Part shown: positions 500-1,494 of the stretch, one piece after another
Numbering within the stretch: the first letter of the stretch is position 1
How the letters are laid out: every line of letters starts with the position of its first letter
Virus record (IMG/VR): IMGVR_UViG_2740892423_000013
DNA length: 4,104 bases
Strand: one strand, 5' to 3'
From: a virus
Taxonomy: Duplodnaviria; Heunggongvirae; Uroviricota; Caudoviricetes
Notes under the pieces: model-generated
The model's database searches: none
What the model was told of the DNA's origin: nothing
What the model saw: only the letters and a program-made list of their open reading frames with translations
Position numbers and translations under genes: made by a program

Positions 500-1494
500 A
501 TGGCTGACATTAAAGATGTGGAGCAGGTCGCGCAGGAGCTGCAGCAGAAGTTTGACGATTTTAAGGCAAAAAACGACAAGCGCATTGACGCGATCGAACA
601 GGAAAAAGGCAAGCTGGCCGAACAGGTGGAAAGCCTGAACGGGCAAATCAGCGAGCTGGAGAACCTGAAAAGCGACCTGGAAAAAGAGCTGGCAGACATC
701 AAGCGTCCGGCAGGCGGCACGCAAAATAAAGTTGCCAGTGAACACAAAGAAGCGTTTATCGGATTTATGCGCAAGGGGCGTGAAGACGGCCTGCGTGAGC
801 TGGAGCGTAAGGCGCTGCAGGTGGGCAATGATGAAGATGGCGGTTATGCCATTCCGGAAGAACTGGATCGCACCATTCTGACGCTACTAAAAGATGAGGT
901 GGTGATGCGCCAGGAAGCCACTGTGATCACCCTCGGGGGCTCGGATTATAAAAAACTGGTGAATCTGGGCGGCACAACGTCCGGATGGGTGGGGGAAACG
1001 GATGCACGTCCGGAAACCGCCACCTCAAAACTGGGGCTGATTGAACCCTTTATGGGGGAAATCTACGGCAACCCGCAGGCCACCCAGAAAATGCTCGATG
1101 ACGCTTTCTTCAATGTGGAAGACTGGATCAACAGTGAGCTGGCGCTGGAATTTGCCGAACAGGAAGAAATTGCCTTTACCAGTGGCGACGGCAGCAAAAA
1201 ACCAAAAGGTTTTCTGGCTTATGAGTCCACCGATGAAGATGACAAGACCCGTGCGTTTGGCAAACTTCAGCACATCGCTTCCGGCGCGGCTTCCGGCGTG
1301 ACCGCTGATGCGATCATTAAACTGATTTACACCCTGCGCAAGGCGCACCGCAGCGGCGCGAAGTTTATGATGAACAACAGCAGCCTGTTTGCCATTCGTT
1401 TGCTGAAGGATAACGACGGAAATTATCTGTGGCGTCCGGGTATTGAGCTGGGTCAGCCTTCTTCTCTGGCAGGGTATGGCATCGTTGAGAATGA
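500..1494 (+). CDS. Major capsid protein, HK97 fold, with N-terminal coiled-coil delta domain; allele A, codons 1-332 only, 3' end cut by N-gap
   Basis: ATG at 500 with SD. N-terminal ~100 aa are rich in E/K/L heptad-like repeats (delta domain). The core carries HK97-capsid-like motifs (GGYAIPEEL; EFAEQEEIAFTSGDGSKKPKGFL). The frame runs straight into the N-run at 1495, so the ORF-track extension to 1531 is a chimera. Confidence 0.85.

Follow-up and report, generated by a model that had tools for sequence, protein, structure and literature searches.

Why should two copies of a phage major capsid gene agree almost perfectly over most of their shared length and yet differ at close to a third of positions in one short stretch? 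The question is raised by the window analysed here (the whole stretch of DNA, 4,104 nucleotides long), in which two such copies, A and B, lie one after the other. The initial annotation had called the copies alleles, had read the abrupt change in their identity as a recombination breakpoint inside the capsid gene and had placed the variable segment in the part of HK97-type capsid proteins that acts as an internal scaffold. We compared the two copies with each other and with about 130 related loci gathered from IMG/VR and from GTDB species genomes, and examined the protein segment that the divergent block encodes.

Two capsid gene copies in a window of four pieces

The window consists of four pieces (1–1494, 1505–2955, 2966–3074 and 3085–4104) joined through runs of ten Ns at 1495–1504, 2956–2965 and 3075–3084. 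All four carry a phage head module of one kind, they overlap one another in content, and every feature described below lies on the plus strand. The first piece opens with the C-terminal part of a prohead serine protease of the HK97 family (3–485; Pfam Peptidase_S78, E = 3.1e-23), followed by capsid copy A (500–1494), an open reading frame comprising codons 1–331 and two bases of codon 332 before it is ended by the N run. The protease frame ends at 485 and the capsid ATG lies at 500, with the stop codon 14 nt before the capsid start and no separate scaffold gene. The same layout of protease then capsid, with a scaffolding gene absent between them, is annotated in the B-type locus L001 (E. coli STEC309) and in the A-type locus L002 (2014C-3075), both of which encode the same prohead protease, WP_001193625.1 (HK97 family). 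The second piece begins inside copy B (1505–2630), which starts on the third base of codon 33 and includes the stop codon. The composite capsid protein matches Pfam PF05065 (Phage_capsid) over residues 114–397 (E = 3.2e-81).

Downstream of copy B, a terminator scan and direct reading of the sequence revealed two stem-loops in the intergenic region between capsid and connector genes (2622–2664). The first is a terminator-like hairpin (2622–2636) that overlaps the capsid stop codon and is followed by a T run; a second, perfect hairpin has an 8-bp stem, GTGCCCGC-N6-GCGGGCAC (2643–2664). A gp6-like head–tail connector frame follows (2676–2955) and is ended by the next N run. The third piece, 109 bases long (2966–3074), contains the intergenic hairpin, with T instead of G in its loop at 2980, and the beginning of the connector gene; one base sets it apart from pieces 2 and 4, and it therefore represents a third variant, which is 100% identical to four of the gathered loci (L020, L022, L135 and L138). 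The fourth piece (3085–4104) holds the capsid C-terminus with its stop codon at 3254–3256, a full-length connector frame (3302–3625; Pfam Phage_connect_1), a head closure protein (3622–4038; Pfam Phage_HCP) and the start of the next gene. The 3′ end of the capsid gene is also a module junction among the related loci, leading to myovirus-type tail genes in L001 and to siphovirus-type tail genes in L002.

The nearest relatives of the pieces differ. Piece 1 is closest to L004/L147 (10 mismatches in 1,494 bases), piece 2 to L001 (9 differences in 1,451 bases) and piece 4 to L134, a B-type contig; piece 4 mismatches piece 2 at 8 of 497 bases. We considered that pieces 1 and 4 might together make up copy A and rejected this assignment, given the B-type affinity of piece 4 and the different connector gene found in A-type relatives. 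Such differences from piece to piece imply that the source held at least two related copies, probably three. Since the pieces are joined through Ns, copies A and B stand as two assembly fragments, which need not be alleles of a single locus. The term alleles is a loose one: the copies probably come from two or three related prophages, or from strain variants, interleaved in one scaffold. They could also derive from different strains of a mixed sample rather than from one cell.

A closed island with its own ancestry

Copies A and B were compared without gaps (598–1494 against 1505–2401, 897 bases), and no indel was needed, in line with the initial annotation. The 47 mismatches are distributed very unevenly, with 31 in the 101 bases of the block (598–698; 31%) and 16 in the 796 bases of 699–1494 (2.0%). 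The block starts on the third base of codon 33 and ends on the first base of codon 67; its B-type counterpart, at 1505–1605, is identical to the block of the Stx2e phage phiP27. Codons 34–67 contain nine replacements (E41G, Q42E, S45T, Q49K, I50L, S51A, K62A, D66E and I67V) and 14 further codons with synonymous changes only, whereas the 264 codons from 68 to 331 contain two replacements (S80G and L106M) and 14 synonymous changes. The hand count in the initial annotation was accurate in every item, with differences at about a quarter of positions and about nine replacements in the first ~35 codons, then near-identity over about 260 codons with two replacements and about a dozen synonymous changes. 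Maximum chi-square analysis placed the break after position 698 (chi2 = 148.5, against a maximum of 33.5 in 2,000 permutations; Fisher's exact P = 1.6e-20). Immediately 3′ of the block lie 38 nt that are identical in A and B (699–736; the rest of codon 67 and K68–A79, KRPAGGTQNKVA), a stretch that likely served as the downstream homology for exchange.

The upstream edge became visible in complete B-type genes. Positions 1–597 of the window, which comprise the 3′ part of the protease gene, the spacer and capsid codons 1–33, show 0 mismatches in 597 bases to L001, and a mismatch first appears at 598, where the B piece begins; the contig L134, which also carries a complete B-type gene, is likewise identical to copy A over the 597 upstream bases and first differs at 598. 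Full-length genes therefore do not diverge uniformly (0/597 upstream against 31/101 in the block), and the block forms an island closed on both sides, 101 bases long. The proposal of recombination holds; that of a single breakpoint does not. In phiP27 and some other B-type genes, sparse differences from copy A reach upstream to about 546, so that further crossovers must have trimmed the left edge in L001-like copies; a mosaic boundary at 598 thus recurs in related loci (L001 and L134) without being common to all of them. These flank results rest on ungapped, anchor-based comparisons, as a MAFFT alignment of the population misplaced a few columns near an indel and returned 0.8% for a flank in which the ungapped comparison shows full identity.

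The kind of difference in the block points to ancestry. Synonymous divergence (pS) is 0.77 in the block, that is, saturated, against 0.08 in the rest of the gene, and nonsynonymous divergence (pN) is 0.16 against 0.003, giving a pN/pS of about 0.2 within the block. Third codon positions hold 21 of the 31 differences, and the mismatches (16 transitions and 15 transversions) are of all kinds and mostly synonymous. Synonymous saturation in the block next to low values outside it therefore indicates a different ancestry rather than faster evolution in place. The A–B distance in the block even exceeds the gene-wide pS separating these genes from the ST64B/SfI/SfII/SfIV clade (0.55–0.59). Against the block of that clade, the A block is nearer (pS 0.34–0.39) than the gene average of 0.59, although not identical, while the B block is as distant from it (0.66–0.71) as from A. 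With distances beyond the level of the clade, the block must have a history of its own that is older than that of the surrounding gene. For the B block, the best match outside the phiP27-like clade reached about 80–83%, and when a donor lineage was sought by BLAST with both blocks in 49 loci of Klebsiella, Serratia, Citrobacter, Xenorhabdus and further genera, no match exceeded ~83%; a donor was thus not found.

Across about 40 phiP27-like prophages, and across about 36 loci whose flanks are 0–4% apart, the block occurs in discrete forms: A, B (with variants up to 10% apart) and A/B hybrids. The common hybrid, which combines A sequence at 598–664 with B sequence at 676–700, arises from an additional crossover point between 664 and 676, and hybrids account for 11 of about 36 IMG loci. 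Block and flanks are decoupled, in that the B-type loci L001 and L134 match copy A upstream exactly whereas the A-type loci L149–L153 are 3% off. Among 31 loci, with alleles clustered at the block and at four variable spots, the four-gamete test failed for all pairs: all four haplotype combinations were found between the block and the portal N-terminus, the middle of the portal gene and the protease/capsid junction, and also between the two halves of the block itself. We had also considered, prompted by the contact between scaffold and portal in HK97, that block type might be co-adapted with the portal; this idea was rejected, as the block occurs in all combinations with both the N-terminal and the middle island of the portal gene. 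The excess of pS in the block and its reassortment with the flanks identify recombination as the cause. Together, these results mark the block as a mosaic patch most likely produced by homologous recombination, an ordinary kind of intragenic phage mosaicism.

The block is one of several such patches. When diversity was profiled between the start of the portal gene and the end of the capsid gene in 29 unique loci, about five sharp islands (pi 0.10–0.17) stood out from a background of 0.01–0.05. Besides the capsid block, one island occupies the opening ~90 bases of the portal gene, where pairs of loci differ by up to 43%, a second spans ~120 bases in the middle of that gene, and a third lies at its 3′ end, in the overlap with the protease start; a further one marks the protease–capsid junction. 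The portal–protease–capsid module is thus a fine-grained mosaic over its entire length.

Both block types are present in finished genomes. A survey of 5,426 complete E. coli genomes found the B block in 21 (at least 93% identity) and the full A block in 23 (at least 99%); identity is 100% over the 101 bases in 14 complete chromosome records for B and in 12 complete genomes for A. A capsid gene of the phiP27/ST64B-like kind is present in roughly 1,080 E. coli genomes. A/B hybrids make up most of the remaining A-family matches, and among the matches listed 27 records fit type A over the first 78 bases only. In IMG/VR, the first half of the A block was found in 26 contigs and that of the B block in 10. 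E. coli tcmA_3 and E9 each carry one B and one A-family copy at distant chromosomal sites, and IMG genome 2541047899 also contains both types, so that two co-resident prophages are a realistic source of the two copies in the window. Multiple A-family copies occur in TUM1881 (three), Br_190_kylling (two) and E200139 (two). The ST64B/SfI/SfII/SfIV group, an 83% clade, has the block in a single uniform type.

The block in the capsid protein

The block encodes residues 34–67 and lies within the 113 residues that precede the Pfam Phage_capsid domain. Single-sequence AlphaFold prediction gave one helix over residues 4–68, a break at RPAGGT and a second helix over residues 75–109, with a mean pLDDT of 93–96 per 10-residue block over residues 11–60 (above 90); for the B fragment, the helix end and the break were predicted to be the same as in A. 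On this prediction, the helix is 65 residues long; the block makes up its C-terminal half and ends on the right where the helix ends, at residue 68. Because the predicted helix is continuous over 4–68, only this right boundary meets a structural break; a hinge at G37, considered as a structural boundary on the left, was rejected for the same reason. The identical stretch at 699–736 encodes the helix-breaking linker, in which K68, R69 and P70 are invariant or nearly so in the family.

Within residues 34–67, 8 of 10 a/d positions are hydrophobic in both forms, and the hydrophobic pattern is the same in A and B; the core heptad residues are retained. We assigned heptads ourselves from this pattern (a = 43, 50, 57 and 64; d = 39, 46, 53, 60 and 67). 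On this assignment, two of the nine replacements fall at core positions and are conservative (I50L and I67V), two at g (Q42E and Q49K) and five at outer positions. With the hydrophobic heptad positions kept and the changes mostly at the surface, the two versions are most likely functionally interchangeable. In addition, the N-terminal region weakly resembles coiled-coil families and apolipoprotein A-I/keratin chains.

A link to HK97 was obtained at the level of the family. A profile of 33 homologues searched against the PDB reached full-length HK97 gp5 (3QPR/8CFA/8FQK; E = 9.8e-5); it was the full-length profile alone that did so, and a family profile confined to the N-terminal region did not reach HK97 gp5. 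For the alignment we used what we take to be the correct HK97 gp5 sequence, which reproduced the PDB hit exactly (385 residues, 24.9 bits, same coordinates). In this alignment, which is weak (E = 9.8e-5, with low posterior probability N-terminally), the HK97 maturation cleavage site K103|S104 lies opposite K104|A105 and the HK97 linker 67–73 opposite KRPAGG; both K104 and A105 are invariant in the 33 homologues. In HK97, scaffold-domain residues 2–66 form trimeric coiled-coil towers that contact the portal, and residues 76–105 form a helix–turn–strand beneath the capsomers (PMC10275583). Taken with the alignment, the tower data suggest that the block corresponds to the C-terminal half of the tower helix.

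By homology, then, the helix that bears the block would be the coiled-coil part of a built-in scaffolding (delta) domain, and the adjacent S78 protease would be expected to remove this domain, block included, by cutting after about K104, at the predicted K104|A105 site. A text search of the literature for experimental cleavage data on SfV and ST64B yielded nothing usable, the main SfV paper lying outside the texts searched. The proposed location of the variable segment in the HK97-type scaffold part is in this way upheld by its position N-terminal to the 114–397 domain, its place inside the predicted helix and the profile alignment with gp5. The accompanying implication that divergence generally gathers in the delta domain did not stand. 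At the protein level, pairs among 31 homologues of other clades and genera are on average 67% identical over the block, 63–64% over the remainder of the delta domain and 70% over the mature domain. Type B fits the family consensus EKGKLAGEVETLNGKLSEL, whereas type A deviates at the nearly invariant K49 and L50. Judged by these sequence comparisons, the contrast between A and B reflects ancestry and not a segment that generally evolves fast.

Explanations of the patch and known systems

We propose that the fragments in the window come from the head modules of two or more closely related phiP27-like prophages of E. coli, whose capsid genes are about 98% identical save for a 101-bp cassette (598–698) with a separate and much older ancestry. 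The cassette may have moved by homologous recombination among related phages or prophages, using the near-identical sequence on either side, including the 38 identical bases that code for the KRPAGG linker; a phage Rad52-like recombinase or RecA would be the inferred agent. Homogenisation of the flanks around an old polymorphism is just as possible as import of a cassette. In either case both versions would be tolerated because each preserves the helix, and the patch would persist because it is tolerated. We hold this reading, that of a short patch in the scaffold helix exchanged by ordinary homologous recombination among related temperate phages or prophages, at a probability of roughly four in five. 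As a counterpoint, the presence of deep, discrete types at the same few islands could reflect selection that maintains the types.

The counterpoint leads to an explanation that we consider unlikely, in which the block is a balanced polymorphism or specificity cassette: a few old types of the half-helix would be kept by selection, and recombination would merely shuffle them, either to avoid mixed, defective procapsids between related prophages in one cell or to match the helix to a partner such as the portal. Such an explanation would account for types that are deep and discrete (block pS 0.34–0.77 among A, B and the clade C type), for the recurrence of the short island across many backgrounds and for the co-residence of unlike types in tcmA_3, E9, IMG genome 2541047899 and this window, and it would draw on the contact of the HK97 counterpart helix, in its trimeric towers, with the portal (PMC10275583) and on the position of Q42E and Q49K at flanking g sites and of I50L and I67V in the core of our own heptad assignment. 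The replacements are, however, few and conservative, with the low pN/pS given above, and A/B hybrids are common, so that the halves of the block need not match each other. Block type is also unlinked to the portal and protease islands, the same A-family block is co-resident with itself in TUM1881, Br_190_kylling and E200139, and the ST64B/Sf clade has a single type throughout. A more specific version, which we regard as slightly more doubtful still, holds that phiP27-like head modules contain several short compatibility cassettes, the block among them; old, discrete types of the half-helix would be kept by selection because they decide which subunits bundle into the trimeric towers. If it were true, related prophages in one cell would assemble separately.

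The remaining explanations dispense with exchange, and each was contradicted when tested directly. Local fast evolution of the scaffold helix without recombination, under relaxed or diversifying selection, could be argued from the discarding of the HK97 counterpart segment after assembly and from a clade-level pN in the block of 0.106, about twice that in the rest of the gene (0.057). We judge it very improbable, since selection at the protein level cannot yield a synonymous saturation of 0.77 against 0.08 with most differences at third codon positions, since block types reassort against their flanks and since conservation across genera is similar in the block and the mature domain. An assembly or scaffolding artefact, with the B piece misjoined or chimeric and its block taken from an unrelated gene, would suit a window made of fragments chained through N runs, in which pieces 2 and 4 start precisely at a base that differs from the overlapping piece. 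It is scarcely credible given the complete B-type gene with the same flanks in 14 closed E. coli chromosome records (block identity 100%) and in phiP27, and given a block that is homologous, in frame, free of indels and in keeping with the family consensus; the idea of a misjoined piece of an unrelated gene, raised in the initial annotation, is contradicted by these data. The least plausible explanation is targeted hypermutation, for example by a diversity-generating retroelement, for which the short, sharply bounded variable tract inside a structural gene might speak. The differences are not adenine-specific, the types are discrete and common to many genomes, BLAST against the loci found no template-like second copy of the block, and no reverse transcriptase is annotated within the 12-kb contexts of L001 and L002.

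Ordinary exchange of a short patch, the reading we prefer, makes this locus a clean and well-bounded case of sub-gene recombination shuffling among E. coli prophages, in which the surviving patch ends where a structural element ends, at the helix stop at residue 68. Such islands distort capsid-gene phylogenies and the typing of phiP27/ST64B-like prophages, and short-read assemblies of lysogens with multiple prophages will break or interleave at them, as in this window.

The feature is a newly resolved instance of a known phenomenon, and its mechanism is not new. Experimental and genomic work on temperate phages of E. coli found exchange of small gene fragments to be more frequent than that of whole modules, with a median mosaic of about 400–500 bp, and Rad52-like recombinases to act on diverged homologies as short as about 30 bp (De Paepe et al. 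2014, PMC3945230). The patch described here resembles those mosaics as a short intragenic exchange with high-identity borders in temperate or defective E. coli prophages, but at 101 bp it is shorter than the typical one, and the relation is reversed: here a divergent island lies in a near-identical gene, whereas there a near-identical patch lies in divergent genomes (PMC3945230).

The nearest named phage is the Stx2e-converting phiP27 (AJ298298 / NC_003356; loci L021/L139), whose capsid gene shares 94.8% identity with copy A across 995 bases and whose block is the B type unchanged. phiP27 and the E. coli prophages share the order P27-family small terminase, large terminase, portal, protease and capsid, although the left boundary differs, with sparse differences extending to ~546 in phiP27 and the edge at 598 in L001 and L134. 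By sequence, the nearest solved structure is the capsid of the Rhodobacter capsulatus gene transfer agent (PDB 6TB9/6TBA; E = 6e-73 over residues 80–399), in which the N-terminal 60–80 residues, block included, have no confident alignment. As in HK97 gp5, a helical N-terminal extension of ~100 residues precedes the HK97 fold (Huet et al. 2023, PMC10275583), with the same layout of long helix, short linker and second helix, and the capsid gene adjoins an S78 protease gene without a separate scaffold gene. The sequence similarity to HK97 gp5 is remote (family profile E = 1e-4), and trimer formation, a portal contact and cleavage are putative for the present protein.

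Copies of the head module in the window

The four assembly pieces of the window are linked by N10 runs at 1495-1504, 2956-2965 and 3075-3084, and two or three copies of one head module are interleaved across them. The first base of piece 2 (1505) and that of piece 4 (3085) are each a mismatch to the overlapping piece, a pattern that resembles the collapse or trimming of identical sequence during assembly. The spacer separating the capsid gene from the connector gene holds two neighbouring stem-loops (2622-2664, also 3248-3290). One, a terminator-like hairpin, overlaps the capsid stop codon and runs into T7; the second, GTGCCCGC/GCGGGCAC, is perfectly paired over 8 bp and stands immediately 5′ of the connector ribosome-binding site. 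The sole difference of piece 3, G to T at 2980, is in the loop.

Divergent islands and altered capsid genes

At codons 49-50 (window 644-649), within the 101-bp divergent block of the capsid gene, type A encodes Q49 and I50, where a set of 33 homologues spanning many genera has K and L in at least 90% of its members; type B retains this family consensus. Besides the block, otherwise near-identical phiP27-like head modules contain four more short, deeply divergent islands, located at 4019-4110, 4610-4745, 5150-5260 and 5850-5935 (window ~440-540) of the E. coli STEC309 locus (L001), in the portal gene, the portal/protease overlap and the protease/capsid junction. Pairwise divergence reaches 43% over the initial 90 nt of the portal gene, and all four islands reassort independently of the capsid block.

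In two IMG/VR contigs, 2529292715_000008 (L170, about 300-470) and 2634166492_000006 (L172, about 1350-1520), the protease C terminus is fused in frame to the capsid protein. In both, the protease end '...LRDAEDVGSALN' is joined directly, at a point within the block, to a B-type capsid from residue ~42 ('GEVETLNGKL...'); the deletion of ~150 nt takes away the N-terminal half of the scaffold helix. In a further related locus (IMG/VR 2721755653_000010), the capsid gene is split at query position ~1244-1253 by an insert of ~2.4 kb that may be an insertion sequence; the interruption suggests that this prophage is defective.

Tail modules downstream of the capsid gene

Behind nearly identical portal-protease-capsid genes, L001 (7174-12216) and the A-type locus of E. 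coli 2014C-3075 (7369-12321) carry different tail modules, with the switch point directly 3′ of the capsid stop codon: that of L001 is contractile, with sheath and tube, whereas that of 2014C-3075 is lambda-like and non-contractile.
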